64,000 bases of DNA from Candidatus Poribacteria bacterium (GCA_963663765.2 CAXXUA010000011.1:64001-128000); one strand, 5' to 3'; numbered from the stretch's first letter, positions 33,069 to 44,590 are shown. The notes: generated by a model from the letters alone, not told the origin. Numbers and translations are program-made.

Positions 33069-33827
33069 TTATCTGGCATCGTATTTAACACGAATTAATG
33101 ACAACCCGTGAGCAGGTACAGATGGACCTGCCACTGATCTGTCCTTTTCTGACAATATTTTGTGGAATAGTACACATGCGTTTTCCGCATTGCATGACTC
33201 ATGTCTGAGACATTTTAATATTGTCCCGACAATAGCACGAACCATTCCACGTAAAAAAGAATCTGCTTCTATTTCAATGAAGACTTCATGATCGGTTTTC
33301 CAACAAATCGCTTCAAAAATCTCACATACAGGATTGTGCCGATCACTCCCGGTTTTCTGGAAAGAGGAAAAATCCATTTCACCAACAAGACAATTGCAAA
33401 TTGCACCGATTGAATTCACGTCAATATCGTTTGGATAGAAGTATGCCGTATGTCGAGTAAGTGCTGAAGGGTAATCTCGATTTAGTAGCGTATATCTATA
33501 TCTACGACTTGTAGCACTGAATCGTGCATGAAAATCAACTGACACCTCCGAAGCTGAAGAAACAACAATATCGTGTGGTAATAGAGTATTCAGTCCTTTT
33601 TTGTAAGCGATGATAGGAATTGTTACTTCCGTGTGGAAATTTGCTACCTGTCCTTCAGCGTGAACACCCGTATCAGTTCTCCCCGCACCAATAATATGTA
33701 CTGATGTTTTGGTTAATTGTGTGAGTGCTTCCTCAACTGTTCCCTGAATTGTCGGCATGTTAGGTTGTTTCTGCCATCCGTTGTAATTCGTCCCATCGTA
33801 TTCAAGTACAAGTTTGATGTTTCGCAT
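33069..33827 (-). CDS. truA: tRNA pseudouridine(38-40) synthase
   Basis: EYDGTNYNGWQ, AGRTDTGVHA, FHARFSA, FLRGMVRAIVG. Confidence 0.96.
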   Translation of the reverse strand: MRNIKLVLEYDGTNYNGWQKQPNMPTIQGTVEEALTQLTKTSVHIIGAGRTDTGVHAEGQVANFHTEVTIPIIAYKKGLNTLLPHDIVVSSASEVSVDFHARFSATSRRYRYTLLNRDYPSALTRHTAYFYPNDIDVNSIGAICNCLVGEMDFSSFQKTGSDRHNPVCEIFEAICWKTDHEVFIEIEADSFLRGMVRAIVGTILKCLRHESCNAENACVLFHKILSEKDRSVAGPSVPAHGLSLIRVKYDAR

Positions 33828-33912: not shown

Positions 33913-35227
33913 GAGTGTGCAAAGTTTTTGCACAAACTGCTCATTCTCACTCATGGTAGGCGTGCTTTGTAAGCGCTCCCCCCACCTGTACTCCCCTGCA
34001 GGCGTGCTTTGTAAGCGGCCCCCCACCTGCACTCCCCTGCAGGCGTGCTTTGTAAGAGCGCCATCCTCGCCCCCTACCTGCACTCCCCTGCAGGCGTGCT
34101 TTGTAAGCGCGCCATCCTCGCCCCCCACCTGCACTCCCCTGCAGGCGTGCTTTGTAAGCGCGCCATCCTCGCCCCCCACCTGCACTCCCCTGCAGGCGTG
34201 CTTTGTAAGCGCGCCCCCACCTGCACTCCCCTGCAGGCGTGCTTTGTAAGCGCGCGCCCCACCTACACTCCCCTGCAGGCGTGCTTTGTAAGCGCGCCAT
34301 CCTCGCCCCCCACCTGCAGGCGTGCTTTGTAAGCGCGCCCCCCACCTGCACTCCCCTGCAGGCGTGCTTTGTAAGCGCGCCCCCCACCTGCACTCCCTGC
34401 AGGCGTGCTTTGTAAGCGCGCCCCCCACCTGCACTCCCTGCAGGCGTGCTTTGTAAGCGCGCCCCCACCTGCACTCCCCTGCAGGCGTGCTTTGTAAGCG
34501 CGCGCCCCACCTGCACTCCCCTGCAGGCGTGCTTTGTAAGCGCGCCATCCTCGCCCCCCACCTGCAGGCGTGCTTTGTAAGCGCGCGCCCCACCTGCACT
34601 CCCCTGCAGGCGTGCTTTGTAAGCGCGCCCCCCACCTGCACTCCCCTGCAGGCGTGCTTTGTAAGCGCGCCCCCACCTGCACTCCCTGCAGGCGTGCTTT
34701 GTAAGCGCCCCCCACCTGCACTCCCCTGCAGGCGTGCTTTGTAAGCGCGCCATCCTCGCCCCCCACCTGCAGGCGTGCTTTGTAAACGCACCCCATAAGC
34801 GTCAAATTAAGGATTTTGACCTCTTGTGGGAGGGGTTTTCAACCCCGATTTTACGCGCTTTTCCTCTCAAATCGGGGTTGAAAACCCCTCCCACAAGAGA
34901 AACACTAACACTTTTTTCTTAAATTGACGCCTATGGGGCGTGGTTGCCACGCCCGATCTACGCAAACTCAAAACAAAACGGGTAGGGGAACCCAACCCAT
35001 ACGTATTCAACTACCGATTGATTGTCAAACTTCATTAGGTGTCAATATAAAAAAATATTGTTAATATTAACCATATTCTTCAGTCCCGTAGGGACGATAT
35101 GTTTATTCTTCTATGTCGTTCCTATGGAACTCAAGAGAGGGTGATAACACCTATCTATAAACATTGCGTCCCTACGGGACTAAAGAGAACAATATTTTGT
35201 ACCTCTGTGCAAAAACTTTACACACCC
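33913..35227. mobile_element. composite element with IS256-like ends enclosing the REP array
   Basis: GAGTGTGCAAAGTTTTTG / CAAAAACTTTACACACCC, imperfect flanking repeat GTT(G/A)CGG; 34930-35227 is an inverted homolog of 21095-21450. Confidence 0.6.
33956..34794 (+). repeat. GC-rich tandem array of 20 REP-like hairpins
   Basis: Core GGCGTGCTT-TGT-AAGCGCGCC counted 20 times, period about 40-51 bp, non-unique linkers; the first unit starts with GTAG. Confidence 0.9.
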
Positions 35228-35483: not shown

Positions 35484-35988
35484 AACTATTGTAGAGTTTA
35501 GAATTTATTGGATGATTGCTTCGTAGAATGCACCAGATCATGGGTTTATGAGGGAAAAAGTCGGTATTTCTGTGATTTACCTTCATCCTCCTATACATTA
35601 TTTCTCACACATGAGGATTTAATATTGATTAACCGATATATGGAAACAGCAAACCAAAAAGTGTACACGTAAAGTGAACACCTTTTGGTCCGATTTTTTC
35701 AGCAGGTATTATCTGCGTATTGGACTTGGTAGGTTTGTTTTAACTATAGTTAACTATAAGTTATTACCACCCCCCCCCTTCAATTCACATTCGTTAATAT
35801 TTATTATTTACAAAGTCTTCCCGCAAACATTCGGTTTGTGGTATTTTCGTGCCCGCACATTTCGTCGCGGGCTTTTGTTGTTGCATTGGAATTCATTTCA
35901 ATGCTTGTCATCCGTGTTGTGTTATATGCACAATACAGGATATTAACTAATAGTTTTATATTGATAATATATCACAAAGGACATACAA

Positions 35989-36354
35989 TTGATGATTAAA
36001 AGACCTTTAGAATTAATCCGCACCTATCAAGGTGAATGCTTACTCACTGTCATTGTTATGGTCACAATTTTCAGTTTTATGACGCTCTTCGGACATGGGT
36101 TATCTGATGCGCCTCTCTCAACCGAAGCCCCATCTGGTCTGATACCCATATTCAAGCCTGAGTGCATAACAAGACAGGACTGTGAAAAACCATACATAAT
36201 CTGTCCAAACAAAAGAATATCGTGTCCTCAGAAGGTAGACAAAATTGGTAACCATATTATTCCTGACCGGGGGATCATCAACCCCGCATTAACTGAACCT
36301 TGCCAACAAGACGCATTAAGTTCGCAAGGACACACACAAATAAGGAGGTATTGA
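35989..36354 (+). CDS. hypothetical small membrane/secreted protein
   Basis: AAAGGA RBS, one hydrophobic segment, Cys cluster; stop lies 1 nt before the next ATG. No family recognised. Confidence 0.4.
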   Translation: MMIKRPLELIRTYQGECLLTVIVMVTIFSFMTLFGHGLSDAPLSTEAPSGLIPIFKPECITRQDCEKPYIICPNKRISCPQKVDKIGNHIIPDRGIINPALTEPCQQDALSSQGHTQIRRY

Positions 36355-36355
36355 C

Positions 36356-37285
36356 ATGCCAAAACAATTACAGTGGGCAATAGGTGGACTCGCGCTACTT
36401 ATAATCGGTTTCGTTGCATTGCAAATATACTTACATGTAGACATGAAACAGTTCAAAGAGGAACTTGCCGACCCAGAACCTAAAACGGAGACGGAAACCG
36501 AACAACCCCCCGACCAGGTGCAAGTACCTGAAGTGGATATCAGACCGCCTCAGCCAGATGACGGACGTAAGTATGAGTGGCACGGAGATCATTGGCATGA
36601 AGTGCTTGAATTAGAAAACGAATCGTCTATTGATGCAGAACAATCTGTGCCTTTGGTACAGATTGGGTGGGAATATCATACCACACGACAAGGTACCCGT
36701 TATCTCAAGGATCCGGGCTGGTCAGATCACAGCGAAGCAAACATAACCCCAAAGGGGAATCCACTTATAATAGATTGGGGGAGAATGCCTGAAATCATTG
36801 GGATGGTTGATTGGTTTGATCCGTTGACTTGGGAATCCTACCGCAATTTCTGGGGCTTTGATTTTCCCTATATTGGAGAAAATGGTGTTCATCCTTACCG
36901 AGCTGTAGTCGATAACCACGGCACACCGCTACAAATGTTTCGAAATGTTGCTCTTGTGACGAATTATACAACGCGTACCGGATTTCGTCCGACCCCGGAG
37001 CAATTAGAACAATATAACGAGTTGCAAGACCTCTATAAAGGCGCGCTTATCTTGGGCGATTCCAGTACCGCCGAAGCACAAAAACAAAAGATTGATACGC
37101 TCGTTTCCTCCGCACAAGGTGAAATCCCCAATCCATATTCTTATTTTATAGAATTCTATGGTGATCCTGTTGGACCGGGACCTGACCCACCAGAAGTGCG
37201 AAGTAAACGGCAGGCAGATGCGATAAAGAATCTTTACAAACGATTGGAAATTCCGCATCTCTATGAGTTGTATGAACTCGAATAA
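36356..37285 (+). CDS. membrane-anchored protein with histidine-triad-like HGDHWH motif
   Basis: AAGGAGG RBS, N-terminal TM, Pro/Glu-rich linker, YEWHGDHWHE. Confidence 0.8.
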   Translation: MPKQLQWAIGGLALLIIGFVALQIYLHVDMKQFKEELADPEPKTETETEQPPDQVQVPEVDIRPPQPDDGRKYEWHGDHWHEVLELENESSIDAEQSVPLVQIGWEYHTTRQGTRYLKDPGWSDHSEANITPKGNPLIIDWGRMPEIIGMVDWFDPLTWESYRNFWGFDFPYIGENGVHPYRAVVDNHGTPLQMFRNVALVTNYTTRTGFRPTPEQLEQYNELQDLYKGALILGDSSTAEAQKQKIDTLVSSAQGEIPNPYSYFIEFYGDPVGPGPDPPEVRSKRQADAIKNLYKRLEIPHLYELYELE

Positions 37286-37339
37286 TTGTAGGCTGCACAG
37301 AAGCGCAGTCTCATTACATCTATAAAAGGGAATATAATA

Positions 37340-39070
37340 ATGCATTATACACATCAGAAATACCAAATTTTCTTTTTCTTCGTCCTATTTCTTACTTTTT
37401 TCTTGAACGTTAATAGTTACCCAGAGATCACGACAACTTCAGGTGTTGTCAATTTCAGTGATTCTTGGCTCAGTTCCGAACCACAGAATGGTGTTACCTA
37501 CACAGGGACACGGAATGTCATTCCACCTGCTCCGGGTTCCACAGCAACAAAGAAACTGATTTACGATGAAAGTTGGGATCCGCCGAATCCGAAGGAAGGG
37601 AAGGAAGGACCTGATGAGATTATCACCTACACGTTAACATCTCGTGTCACGGGTCAAGGCGTGATACTCATGTCAATAAGTGGACAAACGACGAAAAGCT
37701 ATGATGTCGGTAGTTTTCGTCCCCAAAATGTACAACCCACGTCTCTTACGGTTGAAACAAACCTTGAGGCATACCGTATAGAGAAGTATACGAACCTTCG
37801 CTCTTATGTAGGGTCGTATGTCCCATCTATTTACGACACGTGTTACCCTGTTGAAAACAAAGGATACGATACTGAGATTAAGGCAGGCACTGAAAACTTG
37901 AGTGCTTCTGGAATAGTTACATCTAAACAAATTACGGTTTCCTACGGCACCGAAACAGCATTGCAAAAGTATTTTACCGTTGGCGCTTCTTGGCCACCTG
38001 GTGGTGATGCAAGTTTCGGCGGTGGGAAATCAGAAACTTTAAAGTGGGGATGGACTTTAGATGATCATAGCGGCAACACTTCCACACCTGCAAGTCTTAA
38101 TGGTTCCTTTACGGTAGTACTAAACGACACAGATTTCCACAACAATTCTCCTTCTGGGGAAAATGTACAGCCTCCAGCTCCATGTGCAACTTGTCCTAAT
38201 TGTCAGAGATCTGTGCATACTGAAACCGATCACGTGAAACGCACTTGTCCACTTGATGGTACTCCTAAAGGCTGTGGTGAACCTATTTACGACTGCACAG
38301 ATGAAGAAGAGAAACTTCAGGATGCCTGGCACATGGTACGTACTTGCACGAATCCCGCTTCAATTACATATTTCCCACTTTGCGGTGATAAATTTAGACA
38401 TTGTAAAAATGGGAATTGTACGACCCGTGTTAGGTTTTGGAAAGGGCACTCTGATGGTAGCATCTCTCAAGCTACCGCTGGGGTTACCAACGGATACCCG
38501 GAAAGCCATGTTTTAGAAGATCCGCCCGACGATGATACTGAACTCGCTTCAGATACTTCACCCGATTGTGCCTCATGTACAAGTACAAGCGAGTGCTCAA
38601 CTTGTTCAAGTGATGGTGACGCGTCAGCATCTACCGATTGCGCCTCATGTACGAGTACGAGCGAGTGTTCTGCATGCGATACAACTGAGACATCAACTTC
38701 TGCAACGCCTACCGAGCCAGGTTTATATCCGCCATCGGATGATGACTCTACTATCACGATTTATGACGAATTGATGGTAGATTCTTACCCCGGGCAAGAA
38801 GATATCAGCGTGATTTTGGTGATGCCTTCCGGCAAAGGGTATTCTCAGATTTACTTGTATTTAGCTGACGCTAATGACACGGGGTATGGCAACCAGTTAG
38901 GCGATACGCTTCGCCCATCAAGTTCATCTCTTGTAACGGAAGTGTCGCTTGAGATTGACATACCCAATGATGTCTCGGGTGTGTGTACCATTACGGCGTA
39001 TATTCACCCGCATCCCAGTGCGTCGGATCAAACGTGTTATGAGTATAGTTTCAAAATTTACATATCCTAA
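37340..39070 (+). CDS. secreted Cys/His-rich multidomain hypothetical protein
   Basis: Hydrophobic signal (IFFFFVLFLTFFL), Ser/Thr-rich beta region, CxxC clusters, duplicated DCASCTSTSECS. Confidence 0.8.
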   Translation: MHYTHQKYQIFFFFVLFLTFFLNVNSYPEITTTSGVVNFSDSWLSSEPQNGVTYTGTRNVIPPAPGSTATKKLIYDESWDPPNPKEGKEGPDEIITYTLTSRVTGQGVILMSISGQTTKSYDVGSFRPQNVQPTSLTVETNLEAYRIEKYTNLRSYVGSYVPSIYDTCYPVENKGYDTEIKAGTENLSASGIVTSKQITVSYGTETALQKYFTVGASWPPGGDASFGGGKSETLKWGWTLDDHSGNTSTPASLNGSFTVVLNDTDFHNNSPSGENVQPPAPCATCPNCQRSVHTETDHVKRTCPLDGTPKGCGEPIYDCTDEEEKLQDAWHMVRTCTNPASITYFPLCGDKFRHCKNGNCTTRVRFWKGHSDGSISQATAGVTNGYPESHVLEDPPDDDTELASDTSPDCASCTSTSECSTCSSDGDASASTDCASCTSTSECSACDTTETSTSATPTEPGLYPPSDDDSTITIYDELMVDSYPGQEDISVILVMPSGKGYSQIYLYLADANDTGYGNQLGDTLRPSSSSLVTEVSLEIDIPNDVSGVCTITAYIHPHPSASDQTCYEYSFKIYIS

Positions 39071-39099
39071 ACACCTTAGGTTTTGAGAGACTTTATTAC

Positions 39100-39133
39100 A
39101 GGTAGGTATCCTTTTTGGGTATCTGCCTTTTTT
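39100..39133 (+). terminator. intrinsic terminator
   Basis: AGGTAGGTATCC-TTTTT-GGGTATCTGCCT followed by a T-run, 30 nt after the stop. Confidence 0.7.
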
Positions 39134-39264
39134 CTTCAGAATAAGTCGTTTTGGACTTGAAAAGTTGTCAAAAAGTGCGATAACTCCCTATTTATAGTGA
39201 ACTCTATCATTACTTACACACTTTTATAATTTCATCTTCGGTCTAAAACTGTGTCTTTAACTTA

Positions 39265-39864
39265 CAATACCTTCGCCAATAATATACATTCTGTCAGATT
39301 GTGCGGTCAGTTGTAGCACATTCTTCCAGATTGTGCGGTCAGTTGTAGCACATTCTTCCAGATTGTGCGGTCAGTTGTAGCACATTCTTCCAGATTGTGC
39401 GGTCAGTTGTAGCACATTCTTCCAGATTGTGCGGTCAGTTGTAGCACATTCTTCCAGATTGTGCGGTCAGTTGTAGCACATTCTTCCAGATTGTGCGGTC
39501 AGTTGTAGCACATTCTTCCAGATTGTGCGGTCAGTTGTAGCACATTCTTCCAGATTGTGCGGTCAGTTGTAGCACATTCTTCCAGATTGTGCGGTCAGTT
39601 GTAGCACATTCTTCCAGATTGTGCGGTCAGTTGTAGCACATTCTTCCAGATTGTGCGGTCAGTTGTAGCACATTCTTCCAGATTGTGCATATAAATTATT
39701 CTGTCAGATTCTATCGTCAAATTAGACGCTATGATAATTAAAAATACTTCAACGATAACCTGAAGTTATTTTTATTTATGTAATCCTAACAATATCACAG
39801 AGCAATGGTAGATCAACACTATATACTCATTCAACTGAAGCACTCAAAAATGGCGAAGGTATTG
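39265..39864. mobile_element. MITE with CAATACCTTCGCCA TIRs, expanded by an internal tandem repeat
   Basis: Perfect 14-bp TIR, TAACTTA direct repeat on both flanks; homolog at 44615-44890. Confidence 0.85.
39295..39688 (+). repeat. perfect 32-bp tandem repeat x12
   Basis: CAGATTGTGCGGTCAGTTGTAGCACATTCTTC, no spacers; a GTAG + GCACATTCT/AGATTGTGC hairpin forms across each unit junction. Confidence 0.95.
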
Positions 39865-40075
39865 TAACTTATGAAGGATATTTCATACTGATGCGTTGAT
39901 TTAGAGTTTGCATCTTTGGATAACATATAGATTTATCTTAACAATATATCACAAAGGAGATATACTGGTAACCATATTATTCCAGAACGGGGGATCATCA
40001 ATCCCGCATTAACCGAACCTTGCCAGCAAGACGTATTTAGTTCGCAAGGGGACACACAATTAAGGAATTATTGAC

Positions 40076-40795
40076 ATGACAAAGCAATTACAGTTGGCAT
40101 TAGGGGGACTCGTGCTACTTATAGTGGGTTTCGTGGCATTGCAAATATACTTGCATGTAGACATGAAAAACTTCAAGGAGGAACTTGCCGGCCCAGACCC
40201 CAAAACGGAAACCGAACAACCCCCCGAACAGGCGCAAGTGCCTGAAGTGGATAACAGACCACCACAGCCAGATGATGGACGTAAGTATGAGTGGCACGGG
40301 GATCATTGGCATGAAGTGCCGATGGCACAAAAAGAATCTATGCCGTTGCATGAAGGTTCCTTGACATTTCACGAGGAGCTGCTCAAAACAAATCCCGTGA
40401 AAGCACTTCGCCTGCAAGCAGAAGAACGCGGACATTGGAGCGCTAAATGGATACCGCCATTTCCACCTGACGATCAGGAAGCAGCTGAGATCGCCCGGGC
40501 GAGATATCGCCTTATCTAATATGAAACTATTGGAGATACAAACAATCCCGAATACAAAAAAGCAAATAGTGCAGCTTGGAGGCAGGCAGAGCCTAGGCAG
40601 AAGATAATAAGGGAGGCGTATACCGCAAACGATCATGATGCAATAGCGCGCATTTGTGATTTAATGAAGTTAATCTGGCCGCATTTTCCTGAATCAGACG
40701 TTCCTCCGCTTTATGAAAAAGGGTGGCGTACGTCACCTTCAGACTATTTTCCAGTGCACATTGAAGATTTGAAACTTCCACTTTCCACTCCATAA
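40076..40795 (+). pseudogene. paralog of the HGDHWH membrane protein with an internal stop
   Basis: First ~80 aa similar to the 36356 gene; TAA at 40517-40519, then the same frame stays open for 91 codons to TAA at 40793-40795. Confidence 0.7.
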
Positions 40796-40812
40796 TAAAA
40801 GGAGAAATTTTC

Positions 40813-41010
40813 ATTTTTAAAACACTTTCATTCCTAACACTTATCCTTTGTGTGTTTTCAATCTTTATTTACAATAACGTATCCTTTGCAGTCAATCCAC
40901 TATCCTATAATAAAGATCAACTTAATATCAAGTATCAGGTTAATAACAGTGGATCGGGTAATACATGGGGTAATCCGGTTGATGTTTTTGAAAATGTGAC
41001 AGTAGACTGA
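40813..41010 (+). pseudogene. truncated secreted-protein remnant
   Basis: AAGGAG RBS, ATT in place of ATG, signal-like FKTLSFLTLILCVFSIFIYNNVSFA, stop after 65 codons. Confidence 0.5.
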
Positions 41011-41141
41011 AAACTAGTGCCTTTTTCCTTTGTGAGTTCCATGTTACAAAAACAGGTGCCAGAGGTTATATCACTTAGAAAAAGTATCATCTAAGCAATA
41101 ACATTAGTCACAGAAATCTTATCCTGTTATTCTGTAAATCC

Positions 41142-41238
41142 CGGGGAATGCTATAAGGCATTCATACCCGGGGAATGCTTTATAGCATTCATACCCGGGG
41201 AGTGCCTTAATGGCATTCATACCGTTGATTTCTTGATT
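41142..41238 (+). mobile_element. small hairpin + TCTTGATT-tail insertion element, copy 3
   Basis: Three variant hairpin units plus one octamer at AATCC^TGAAAATCC. Confidence 0.65.
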
Positions 41239-41600: not shown

Positions 41601-41918
41601 TTATACATCAATTTTAGATTATTGAAACATGAACATCGCTCTTTAGTCCCGTAGGGACGATATGTTTATAGAAAACGAATACGCTTCCCACCTCTTTAGT
41701 CCCGTAGGGACGATATGTTTATAGAAAACGAATACGCTCCCTACCTCTTTAGTCCCGTAGGGACGATATGTTTATTCTTCTATGCCGTTCCTACGGAACT
41801 CAAGAGAGATAGATAACATTTTTCTATAAACATATCGTCCCTACGGGACTGAAGATCGTTTCAAACTATGAAGGACACCTGCAAAACGCCATGCTTATGT
41901 GAAACAATGATTAACATA

Positions 41919-42058
41919 TAGTTATTTAGCACAACTCGTTAAATTACTAATTGGTAAAATTGGTAATTTTTTCTTCGGAAAAACCCAGTCATAGACAAGA
42001 TTTGTGTACAGAAAAAATTACCAATTGCCTGAAAGTAGCGACTTGTACTAAATAACTA
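41919..42058. mobile_element. nested inverted-repeat mini-element
   Basis: TAGTTATTTAGCACAACTCG / CGACTTGTACTAAATAACTA. Confidence 0.6.
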
Positions 42059-42536
42059 TTTATTAAAAATTACTTCACATAGACAAGTGGATTTAACCGT
42101 CCTTCTTTTGCTTTGGATGATCTTTAGTCCCGTAGGGACGAAATGTTATATACCATACCCAATATATGTGAATTTAATATAAACATTTAGTTAACTGGTA
42201 CAAGTCGTAAGATTAGTAATTATATAGGATTTTTATGGTATTCTTGATTTTGGTCTGAACTAGGATTTTCAGGATTAGTAGATTATCAAGATATTACTCA
42301 TCAGATCCTAATCCAAAAGAGAGCATAAACACATATCAAAAACCCTTGACGAGGTAAATCCTGCTAATCTGGTAATCCTGAAAATCCTGGTTCAGAAAAA
42401 GAATGGATTAACTCACAAGAATAAGCTAACTCAAGGATTAACAACTGTGATAGAATTTACTCAATAAATTGAAAACTGAATAACCCTGACAAACGATATA
42501 CCAAAAACGCTACTCACCAAAAAAATACAATAATAC

Positions 42537-42982: not shown

Positions 42983-44590
42983 ATGAAAGTTGTAACTGCT
43001 GCGGAAATGCGTAAGATTGACGATGATACTATCAACGGTATCGGTATACCAGGTATAGTTCTCATGGAAACTGCTGGGAACGAAATCGTACGTTCTATTG
43101 AAAAGCATTATCCAAATGCTCACCGTTTTGCAATCTTTGTAGGTAAAGGCAATAACGGTGGAGATGGACTTGTCATCGCACGACAACTTGCACACATAGG
43201 ACATATAGTAAATATCTTCCTTGTTTCTCCACCTGAGAGTTTCACTGGAGAAGCACTAACGAATCTGGAAATTGTTAGAAAATTATGTCTACACTGTGAG
43301 CAAATCTTAGTAGGTAATCCACTCAGTGATGGTTTGGAGAGAGATACATCCAAAAACCATCATGTCTTTATACAGAAACAACTAAGCTTTATAGAAAACT
43401 GTGATTTACTGATTGATGCAATTTTCGGGATAGGATTGAATCGTGAAGTACGAGAACCCATAGCAAATACAATTAAAACCATCAATAAACTCAATAAACC
43501 TATCCTTTCAGTTGATTTGCCTTCAGGTTTAGATGCAGATACTGGAAAACCATTGGGTACTTGCATTCAAGCGGAAAGAACAGTTTCAATTGGTTTGCCA
43601 AAAAGAGGTTTGATGTTACCACCAGGGAGACAATATACAGGTAAATTAGATATTATTGACATCGGATTCCCAAAAAAAGTAATTGAGGCACAAGGAATAA
43701 AGTGTAATTGGACATCTAAAAAAGAAGTTACTAAGTGGATACCTACACGTTCACCCGACTCACATAAGGGAAGTTATGGACGAGTACTCGTTCTTGCAGG
43801 ATCTACCGGAATGACGGGGGCTGCAGCACTCGCAAGTGAAGCAGCACTACGTACAGGCGCAGGATTAGTTACGCTTGCAATTCCAAAAAGTCTCAACACT
43901 ATTTTGGAAGTAAAACTGTCTGAAGTCATGACTCTACCACTCCCCGAAACGGATGTGGGGAGTATTGCAGAATCGGCAACTGAACAGATCCTTGACCATG
44001 CACTCAAGCACAAATCTATAATTGCAATCGGTCCGGGGCTTTCTCAACATCCTGAAACAGTTGCACTTGTTCATCAATTGATTTATAGGAATAAGAATGA
44101 TCAGCTTGGGTTAAATTTTATTATTGATGCTGACGGTCTTAATGCCTTAGCACAAAAGACAGAACTCATCCATTTGCTTGACAATCATGCCGTTCTTACA
44201 CCACATCTGGGAGAGATGGCACGGTTAACCAACTACTCTATTGAGGAATTAAAAACAGACAGAATTCGTGTTGCAGAAGAATTTTCTCAAAAATACGGTG
44301 TTACTCTTGTACTTAAAGGTTCACCCACTATTGTTGCACAACCAAATAATGAAATATGGATCAACTCTACAGGTAATCCGGGTATGGCAACCGCAGGAAT
44401 GGGAGATGTCTTAACTGGGATAATTACCGGTTTAATAGCACAAAATGTAGAAAACCATACTGCTGCAACACTCGGTGTTTATTTACACGGTTTAGCAGGT
44501 GACATAGTCGCAAAATCCAAAGGTACACATGGTCTCATTGCAACTGATGTTTTAAACACGATTCCAATGGCAATATCAACTTTATACTAA
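42983..44590 (+). CDS. nnr: bifunctional NAD(P)H-hydrate epimerase/dehydratase
   Basis: LMETAG, GKGNNGGDG, DAIFGIG, VDLPSG; SHKGSYG, GPGLS, DADGL, TPHLGE, GMGDVL. Confidence 0.95.
   Translation: MKVVTAAEMRKIDDDTINGIGIPGIVLMETAGNEIVRSIEKHYPNAHRFAIFVGKGNNGGDGLVIARQLAHIGHIVNIFLVSPPESFTGEALTNLEIVRKLCLHCEQILVGNPLSDGLERDTSKNHHVFIQKQLSFIENCDLLIDAIFGIGLNREVREPIANTIKTINKLNKPILSVDLPSGLDADTGKPLGTCIQAERTVSIGLPKRGLMLPPGRQYTGKLDIIDIGFPKKVIEAQGIKCNWTSKKEVTKWIPTRSPDSHKGSYGRVLVLAGSTGMTGAAALASEAALRTGAGLVTLAIPKSLNTILEVKLSEVMTLPLPETDVGSIAESATEQILDHALKHKSIIAIGPGLSQHPETVALVHQLIYRNKNDQLGLNFIIDADGLNALAQKTELIHLLDNHAVLTPHLGEMARLTNYSIEELKTDRIRVAEEFSQKYGVTLVLKGSPTIVAQPNNEIWINSTGNPGMATAGMGDVLTGIITGLIAQNVENHTAATLGVYLHGLAGDIVAKSKGTHGLIATDVLNTIPMAISTLY

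Follow-up and report, generated by a model that had tools for sequence, protein, structure and literature searches.

The closest described counterparts of the locus reported here are of two kinds. Polymorphic toxin/immunity cassettes, such as contact-dependent inhibition (CDI; cdiA-CT/cdiI) and Rhs, form one of them, together with adaptor or chaperone genes placed directly upstream of their cognate secreted cargo, as in type VI adaptor families. The other is the histidine-triad protein PhtD, which according to its published description binds zinc via H83 on strand 2, H86 and H88 on strand 3, and E63, and passes it to its operon partner AdcAII (PMC3842936). The present locus lies in a stretch of 64,000 nucleotides (nt) from a Candidatus Poribacteria bacterium (GCA_963663765.2, CAXXUA010000011.1:64001-128000), hereafter the window, with positions counted from its first letter. 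Two copies of a three-gene envelope cassette, ORF0-A-B (ORF, open reading frame), lie in it, one intact and the other decayed; the cassette is specific to the genus, and the end of its gene A varies together with the start of its gene B. The logic of such two-gene units is familiar from polymorphic two-gene systems and adaptor-cargo pairs; new are the proteins as such, the triad-like hairpin that A carries as a single unit tethered to the membrane, and the exported Cys/His core of B.

The repeat behind the two cassettes spans positions 36246-36605 and returns at 39966-40319 with a DNA identity of 88-93%; a shorter piece upstream of it, 35944-35985, is found again at 39921-39962 (83% identity). 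The proteins A1 and A2 have 72 of 90 N-terminal residues in common (E=6e-48) and show no similarity beyond, and the DNA homology stops about 7 nt past the HGDHWH codons (36581-36598 and 40295-40312, respectively). This core repeat holds, far beyond chance, and with it two claims of an earlier, sequence-only reading of the window, namely that the cassettes share their upstream region and first ~80 codons, and that unrelated C-termini follow directly after the motif.

Cassette 1 is encoded on the plus strand, as are all features of both cassettes. Its shared 5' block starts with an AT-rich, promoter-like stretch carrying an AAAGGA ribosome-binding site (35931..35988), where blastn homology to other copies begins at 35931/35952. 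An alignment of the upstream DNA of 14 copies revealed a conserved block ending in CACAAAGGA, and the AT-rich stretch may be read as a promoter; inspection of the shared upstream block, by eye only, gave no convincing Fur- or Zur-type operator. The first gene, ORF0 (35989..36354), encodes 121 amino acids (aa), with a single hydrophobic helix and a tail rich in Cys. It stops 1 nt ahead of the start of A1, and its last 36 codons are inside the repeat, so that the earlier description of a cassette of two genes had overlooked a third. A1 (36356..37285) encodes an intact bitopic protein of 309 aa with a C-terminal domain of class 1, and has full-length orthologs (P0002-P0012). B1 (37340..39070) begins 55 nt downstream of A1 and encodes a predicted exported protein of 576 aa with 21 Cys and a hydrophobic N-terminus, the signal peptide corresponding to 37340-37417.

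Cassette 2 is a pair of pseudogenes. Within its 5' block (39865..40075) ORF0 has been deleted to the last 36 codons (39966-40075). The class-0 A2 gene (40076..40798) had been taken for a gene of 147 aa (40076-40519); its TAA at 40517-40519 is in fact an in-frame interruption, since the read-through translation showed the same frame to be open on to 40795, and in an alignment of 25 sequences the stop replaces the conserved Tyr of 'YL..YY' in the class-0 domain. What follows is a B2 remnant of ~65 codons (40814..41010), detected by tblastn of B proteins on the window. It has ATT where a relative has the start Met, and consists of a class-0 signal peptide and ~25 mature residues fused to 24-25 residues from the very end of the B-family C-terminal domain, corresponding to an internal loss of ~500 codons. 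Even in this decayed cassette the class-0 A is still paired with a class-0 B stump. The expectation of a closely spaced signal-peptide gene behind each A was consequently correct for B1 and not for cassette 2, and the downstream genes of the two cassettes look unrelated because one of them is a stump; intact B proteins share the Cys/His core and often the C-terminal beta-sandwich.

Contigs of four public runs from two studies were identical to the window over 36556-39127 and 40405-41073, the A2 stop included; it may be from these contigs that the window itself derives, and their 5' blocks are in fragments. A direct connection of 39136 to 41029, without cassette 2, was seen in contigs of three public runs and could stem from a strain without the decayed cassette or from a paralogous locus.

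The N-terminal module of A (N-module) was found in 18 copies in this 6.35-Mb genome. All 18 matches comprised the N-module only, each spanning just A1 residues 1 to ~112, and the family copies are scattered over six contigs. An iterated search increased the number to 34 ORFs, the distant ones without the motif. Two tandem arrays with 4-5 distant family members each (G000:C3:40248-45071 and G000:C4:860375-865557) were observed in the iterated search only; their members have a transmembrane (TM) anchor and a low-complexity linker, and no hairpin motif. Across the phylum, 34 of 176 genomes gave a match to the A N-module. Within the genus, 31 of the 39 other genomes have it; none of 65 genomes of a sister genus does, and two further genera contributed one genome each. 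Copy numbers outside this genome range from 1 to 14, with 14 and 10 copies in two relatives. When 1.84 billion representatives were searched with a profile, 77 matches were obtained at E<=1e-3, with the module N-terminal in 75 of the 77 and protein lengths of ~80-320 aa. Neither ORF0, A nor B fitted any Pfam, NCBIfam or PADLOC family, and the database relatives of A and B are all unnamed or labelled 'hypothetical'. Narrow full-text searching, which is not proof of absence, found no account of this family in the literature.

The proteins downstream of A belong to one modular family, in which the signal peptide is followed by an N-domain that varies, then by three Cys/His modules, and finally by C-terminal modules that are shuffled. 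In B1 these parts correspond to the variable N-domain (37418-38182), the Cys/His core (38183..38449) and a C-terminal beta-sandwich (38801-39067). The three modules of the core are C282/C285/C288-H298-C303, C312-C319-H331-C336 and C348-C355-C360-H370, and equivalent positions are conserved in class-0 B proteins, 17 of which were aligned with six Cys/His positions invariant and three more nearly so. A C..C..H...C module was present in 29 of 30 long B proteins. The N-domain of B1 looks beta-rich, and that of the largest class (class 0) is predicted from its alignment to be helical with a Gly/Ala-rich hydrophobic stretch. The C-terminal types are a beta-sandwich ending like that of B1, an FN3-like module, or further Cys/His repeats. 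A database search with the class-0 B alignment returned 14 proteins, those with a known source all from Poribacteria or metagenomes, and all unnamed or 'hypothetical'. ESM Atlas held no usable match for B1 or a class-0 B, and PDB sequence profiles gave nothing under E=0.027 with either B alignment.

To describe the linkage of A and B, we used eight loci fetched from the genome collection and 40 chosen from the match list, stronger matches being favoured. Among 50 A genes of other genomes, 47 had behind them, on the same strand and with its start at -60 to +250 nt, an ORF of 60 aa or longer. An ORF with a signal-peptide-like start came after 39 of the 50, compared with 115 of 600 random ORFs as a crude background, and 22 of those 39 were also at least 300 aa long. 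Only 7 of the 18 A genes of the window's own genome have such a downstream ORF, because many copies there have decayed. Among 46 linked A-B pairs 17 overlap, 10 of them by 4 nt. The C-termini of A and the parts of B were then clustered by BLAST for 30 pairs in which B had 380 aa or more. In four cases the automatic rule had taken a shorter ORF and B was assigned manually; eight shorter B genes were excluded. The C-terminal class of A agreed with the N-terminal class of B with an adjusted Rand index (ARI) of 0.72 and an adjusted mutual information (AMI) of 0.74, the ARI being reached by none of 10000 label shuffles. By comparison, the class of A against the C-terminal type of B gave an ARI of 0.04, and the N-class of B against its own C-terminal type an ARI of 0.02, which was reached in 3683 of 10000 shuffles. 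From this contrast it follows that the last part of gene A and the first part of gene B stay linked as one unit. This unit is flanked by a constant 5' part, comprising the promoter-like block, ORF0 and the A N-module, and by a shuffled 3' part.

A natural fusion provides a further view of the same division. At L029:6001-7374 a chimera of 457 aa continues in frame from the A N-module (anchor, linker and hairpin) into what is constant in a class-0 B. The Cys/His core, the FN3-like module and the C-terminal sandwich are retained, and exactly the two variable domains are absent. As a single case, the chimera is compatible with a side-by-side action of the two constant parts.

We also co-folded a class-0 pair of this genome, using A residues 60-246, B residues 24-330 and four Zn. 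The interaction prediction score from aligned errors (ipSAE) was 0.01, 0.63 and 0.46 in three runs (median 0.46), and the best of three controls scored 0.00, for which the tool's verdict was 'weak support'. Among solved complexes 116 of 157 reach the mark in question, and among mismatched pairs 2 of 215; at values up to 0.60 it is reached by just 18 of the 157 solved complexes and by both of the passing mismatches. The partner predicted local distance difference test (pLDDT) value was at least 59, and contacts agreed between runs in at least 11%. Together, co-variation and model weakly suggest that A binds B.

Several claims of the sequence-only reading were thereby extended beyond the window. 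A constant anchor with a variable domain proved general in the family, and a closely linked signal-peptide gene follows most of the A genes taken from other genomes. Freely variable C-termini were not found; the C-terminal domains instead fall into recurring classes with conserved orthologs, those of A1 being 41-89% identical to it. The proposal that each anchored protein is the cognate partner of its secreted neighbour gained from the co-variation of the two classes, and the co-fold added weak support.

The anatomy of A was deduced from an AlphaFold2 (AF2) model of A1 built with 17 aligned sequences (mean pLDDT 71). Residues 3-37 are predicted as a helix, corresponding to the N-terminal TM helix (36362..36466), and are followed by a disordered Pro/Glu-rich linker (residues 38-71, pLDDT <50). 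Next comes the beta-hairpin K72-V83 (36569..36604), with strands at residues 72-75 and 80-83 and H76-G-D-H79 at the turn (pLDDT ~60). The variable C-terminal domain of class 1 (36606..37285) is unlike that of A2 and is modeled as an alpha/beta domain, with pLDDT 88-98 for residues 200-309. The model had no Foldseek/PDB match at E<=1e-3, and a VIA wide search gave generic helical-hairpin matches only (Z<=7.3). The orthologs that retain the A1 C-domain diverge far more in their N-modules. In one of them, P0012, a lipoprotein-like N-terminus (lipobox by eye) replaces the TM-linker-hairpin module; since its anchor differs, the A1 C-domain appears portable between anchors.

The hairpin follows the motif [KE]-[WY]-[VE]-[WR]-H-[GNH]-[DN]-H-W-x-x-[VMI]-[PD] in 111 of 157 unique family sequences, with one motif per A protein at residues 55-119. 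The prevailing variants are W-V-[RW]-HGDHW-D-K and W-E-W-HGDHW-H-E; the Glu of the latter would face the third His across the hairpin. The third ligand position, after the Trp, is occupied by D (60), H (36) or C (7) in 103 of the 111 motif-bearing sequences. A position at which D, H and C replace one another behaves as a metal ligand would, and we consider that the hairpin probably binds Zn2+ or another divalent metal. An objection that the third His is not conserved, and that there would hence be no metal site, was dropped after this wider count. As for HxxHxH itself, it is present as HGDHWH in both window copies and in 44 of the 157 sequences within the first 140 residues, HxxHx[HDC] in the same region being found in 115 of 157.

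The likeness to PhtD (PMC3842936) lies in several features. The H-G-D-H-aromatic-H hexapeptide is also found in A; the first His stands before a tight turn and the others on the next strand (H83/H86/H88 in PhtD, H76/H79/H81 in the A1 model); and an acidic fourth ligand is possible, E63 in PhtD and, across the strand in the 'E..H' variant, E74 in A. In both cases, moreover, an extracytoplasmic protein is encoded beside a functional partner gene, putatively so for A. By analogy, the resemblance is good in how the site may work. On the other hand, A has one unit per protein and Pht five, A is TM-anchored in a diderm whereas Pht is a Gram-positive surface protein, the third ligand of A is mostly Asp (60/111), and the neighbour of A is not a solute-binding protein.

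Membership of A in the Pht family was rejected. A1 and A2 matched no Pfam family at E<=1, and four hairpin fragments of 47-50 aa matched none at E<=10, the Pht model (presumably PF04270) and Fibritin_C included; with A1 residues 1-100 the sole match was at chance level, to an unrelated adenovirus family (E=0.1). A search of all PDB sequences with the N-module profile at E<=10 returned two unrelated chains and no Pht chain. The extended Pht pattern of Bersch et al. 2013, [DEH]-G-hydrophobic-x(12,16)-3 hydrophobic-x-HxxHxH-2 hydrophobic (PMC3842936), matched 0 of the 157 sequences, and its C-terminal half alone also matched none. The metal site suggested by the sequence-only reading is plausible; A is not a member of the pneumococcal family.

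A foldon-like, oligomerising role of the hairpin was likewise set aside as resemblance only. It rests on a marginal match of the N-module profile to P0114, a protein with tail-fibre foldon-like hairpin repeats (Fibritin_C, summed E=6.5e-20), in which eight repeats were hit with E=4.4e-4 over only ~20 residues. Both have Pro-x-x-Pro-x-Asp-Gly followed by an aromatic residue, a turn and Trp, but the His residues are missing from the P0114 repeats, and Fibritin_C matched none of the A sequences.

The 5' block occurs 13 times with 84-92% DNA identity and has a sharp end near 36605. Since the N-modules of A1 orthologs diverge beside a kept C-domain, the block has been homogenised within the genome or reused by recombination. 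In its coding part, the N-module, the ratio of nonsynonymous to synonymous substitution rates (dN/dS) is 0.27, with a mean dS of 0.40 (36 pairs of nine copies), and the module is therefore under purifying selection. A shared 3' block (38978..39236) comprises the end of B1 and its downstream flank, and is 79-81% identical to the 3' ends of two other cassettes, at C15:511980-512237 and C6:169840-169582. ORF0, with the conserved pattern C..C..ICP..CP(L/Q)D, is intact in five copies of this genome, and an upstream ORF of at least 60 aa was found at 36 of 68 A genes. The deletion of ORF0 has its junction at an AATTG microhomology common to ~9 copies.

The explanation that we favour, at a probability of about 40%, places a cognate pair at the outer face of the inner membrane: A, tethered there, would serve the exported B as adaptor or chaperone, and its hairpin probably binds metal. 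A would be held in the inner membrane by its N-terminal helix, and a short Pro/Glu spacer would be followed by the hairpin, one face of which would show H, H and H/D/C as a probable site for Zn2+ or another divalent metal; the class-variable domain would lie in the periplasm beyond the hairpin. B would be exported through its Sec signal peptide, with a layout of class-variable N-domain, three zinc-finger-like Cys/His modules and interchangeable C-terminal modules (immunoglobulin-like, FN3, Cys/His repeats). The variable domain of A is envisaged to bind the variable N-domain of B as a matched pair, so that A could keep a new B beside its own constant part, the hairpin together with ORF0, during B maturation; the Cys/His modules of B might receive metal meanwhile. 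The helper role thus proposed resembles that of type VI adaptors, where a small helper gene also stands right before the matching cargo gene, with one end cargo-specific and the other constant. It differs in that there is no homology, in that A is bitopic and periplasm-facing, and in that no secretion machine was identified.

A number of observations weigh against this explanation. The 40 added loci were hand-picked and not random, and because the cassettes are kin the shuffle test overstates the significance of the co-variation, although the contrast among the three ARI values is independent of that test. Co-variation can also come from co-inheritance of neighbouring DNA without binding. The co-fold is weak, one of the three runs giving 0.01, and the use of our own alignments and of zinc ligands places it outside the calibration of the tool. 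The AF2 model of B1 is poor (mean pLDDT 41, with only residues 488-575 at 55-76), and searches of Pfam, NCBIfam and PDB allowed no fold, family or function to be assigned to the A C-domain or the B N-domain. Exported Cys-rich proteins usually form disulfides and not zinc sites. ORF0 is deleted in ~9 of 14 core copies of this genome, cassette 2 included. Finally, 15 of 68 locus-derived A genes are without the hairpin pattern (one has HGDHFH), and at least four hairpin-less A genes still precede long B genes; the hairpin is therefore not essential to every cassette.

The main rival shares the binding claim and reverses the role of A. B would then be a Sec-exported, bacteriocin-like toxin with its activity in the N-domain, and A the producer's membrane-anchored periplasmic immunity protein. 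We regard this as somewhat unlikely. The logic would be that of polymorphic toxin loci, where a variable domain is attached to a constant module and the neighbouring gene co-varies, and the cassettes indeed resemble CDI and Rhs in the constant N-terminal module and variable domain of A, in the adjacent gene that co-varies with it (ARI 0.72, 30 pairs), and in extra decayed or 'orphan' copies and homology blocks that could permit cassette exchange. Many copies per genome, several of them decayed, would be the typical leftovers of polymorphic loci, and confinement to one genus with fast diversification agrees with such a history. The Gly/Ala-rich stretch in the predicted helical N-domains of class-0 B could enter membranes, the location of A suits guarding against a periplasmic or membrane-acting toxin, and the weakly supported A-B binding fits this explanation as well. 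However, no toxin, immunity or defence family was recognised in A, B or ORF0 with Pfam, NCBIfam and PADLOC; sequence searches of the PDB gave no match either, and the B1 fold was too poor to search. Unusually for such loci, the variable domain of B is N-terminal, and the putative immunity gene precedes B. In CDI and Rhs terms, the constant part of A is merely anchor, linker and hairpin, the co-varying neighbour is an exported multi-domain protein of 400-650 aa and not a small immunity protein, and the anchor-protein gene comes first and the exported-protein gene second, with no small immunity gene after a toxin. An immunity protein would have no obvious need for ORF0 or for a conserved hairpin under purifying selection, no secretion route over the outer membrane was identified, and neither a toxin domain nor a dedicated secretion system was recognised.

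It is unlikely, and a little more so, that no partnership exists at all and that ORF0, A and B are co-transcribed variable envelope proteins, their co-variation reflecting where recombination breakpoints fall. The 5' block, consisting of promoter, ORF0 tail and A N-module, would then be homogenised by gene conversion or reused by recombination. Its 13 occurrences with a sharp common end, together with the common 3' block, agree with this, as do the A1 orthologs that keep the C-domain and diverge in the N-module, indicating within-genome homogenisation, and the weakness of the co-fold. The breakpoints, on the other hand, split the B N-domain from its own C-terminal part (ARI 0.02) and none splits it from the A C-domain (ARI 0.72), a pattern that is hard to explain without selection to preserve the pairing. 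Overlapping or abutting A and B frames are numerous, and the L029 fusion removes exactly both variable domains.

A stricter form of the favoured adaptor explanation would make A an extracytoplasmic tethered zinc chaperone that loads the Cys/His modules of B, perhaps with the four-Cys ectodomain of ORF0, through swappable docking pairs; we judge it distinctly improbable. Very improbable, lastly, is that A is a Pht-like scavenger whose hairpin captures or buffers periplasmic Zn2+ for uptake independently of B, since the HGDH[WY]H-type hexapeptide at a predicted strand-turn-strand and the zinc transfer from the PhtD triad to AdcAII (PMC3842936) speak for it, while the single triad per protein, the 0 of 157 matches to the Pht pattern, the lack of a Pfam Pht or PDB Pht-chain match, the absence of any zinc transporter gene seen next to the cassettes, and the variable domain and matched B gene left unexplained speak against it.

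The cassette island lies between a truA-like gene (33069-33827) and an nnr-like gene for NAD(P)H-hydrate repair (42983-44590). In other genomes of the genus these two are far apart or on separate contigs, and since they are never neighbours in the genus genomes that have both on one contig, the island is placed at a synteny break; no ancestral empty site could be defined from the genus genomes. The stretch from truA to the cassettes contains a GC-rich tandem repeat of period 41 nt (33958-34794, 19.6 copies, 88% matches), and the long ORFs across it on both strands are repeat artefacts. Between the cassettes lies an element (39250-39900) with a 32-nt tandem repeat (39286-39688, 12.6 copies, 99% matches); parts of it occur ~70-260 times in the genome, and it looks like a small mobile repeat or one of the miniature inverted-repeat transposable element (MITE) type. 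Clusters of the GTCCCGTAGGGAC hairpin repeat at 35077-35187 and 41639-42147 bracket the whole island in inverted orientation. This repeat is an element of the repetitive extragenic palindromic (REP) type, including a 53-nt tandem unit, with hundreds of copies genome-wide. At 41140-41223 there are three 27-nt tandem units (CCCGGGGAATGC..GCATTCATA), every one of them an internal palindrome.

As symbionts of sponges, Poribacteria are still uncultured, and few of the genes specific to their lineage have been explained. A large, exported and fast-diversifying family is a candidate for dealings with the host or with neighbouring bacteria. Co-variation of A and B across a gene boundary, which exceeds that of the two halves of B with each other, predicts which domains touch. 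If the hairpin binds zinc, the Pht-type triad unit would extend beyond Firmicutes in a single-copy, membrane-tethered form, and if the Cys/His modules of B bind metal too, the question arises how exported zinc sites are filled. Should A prove to be a tethered zinc chaperone for B, the cassettes would constitute a periplasmic metallochaperone-client system with swappable specificity, together with an exported zinc-finger family.

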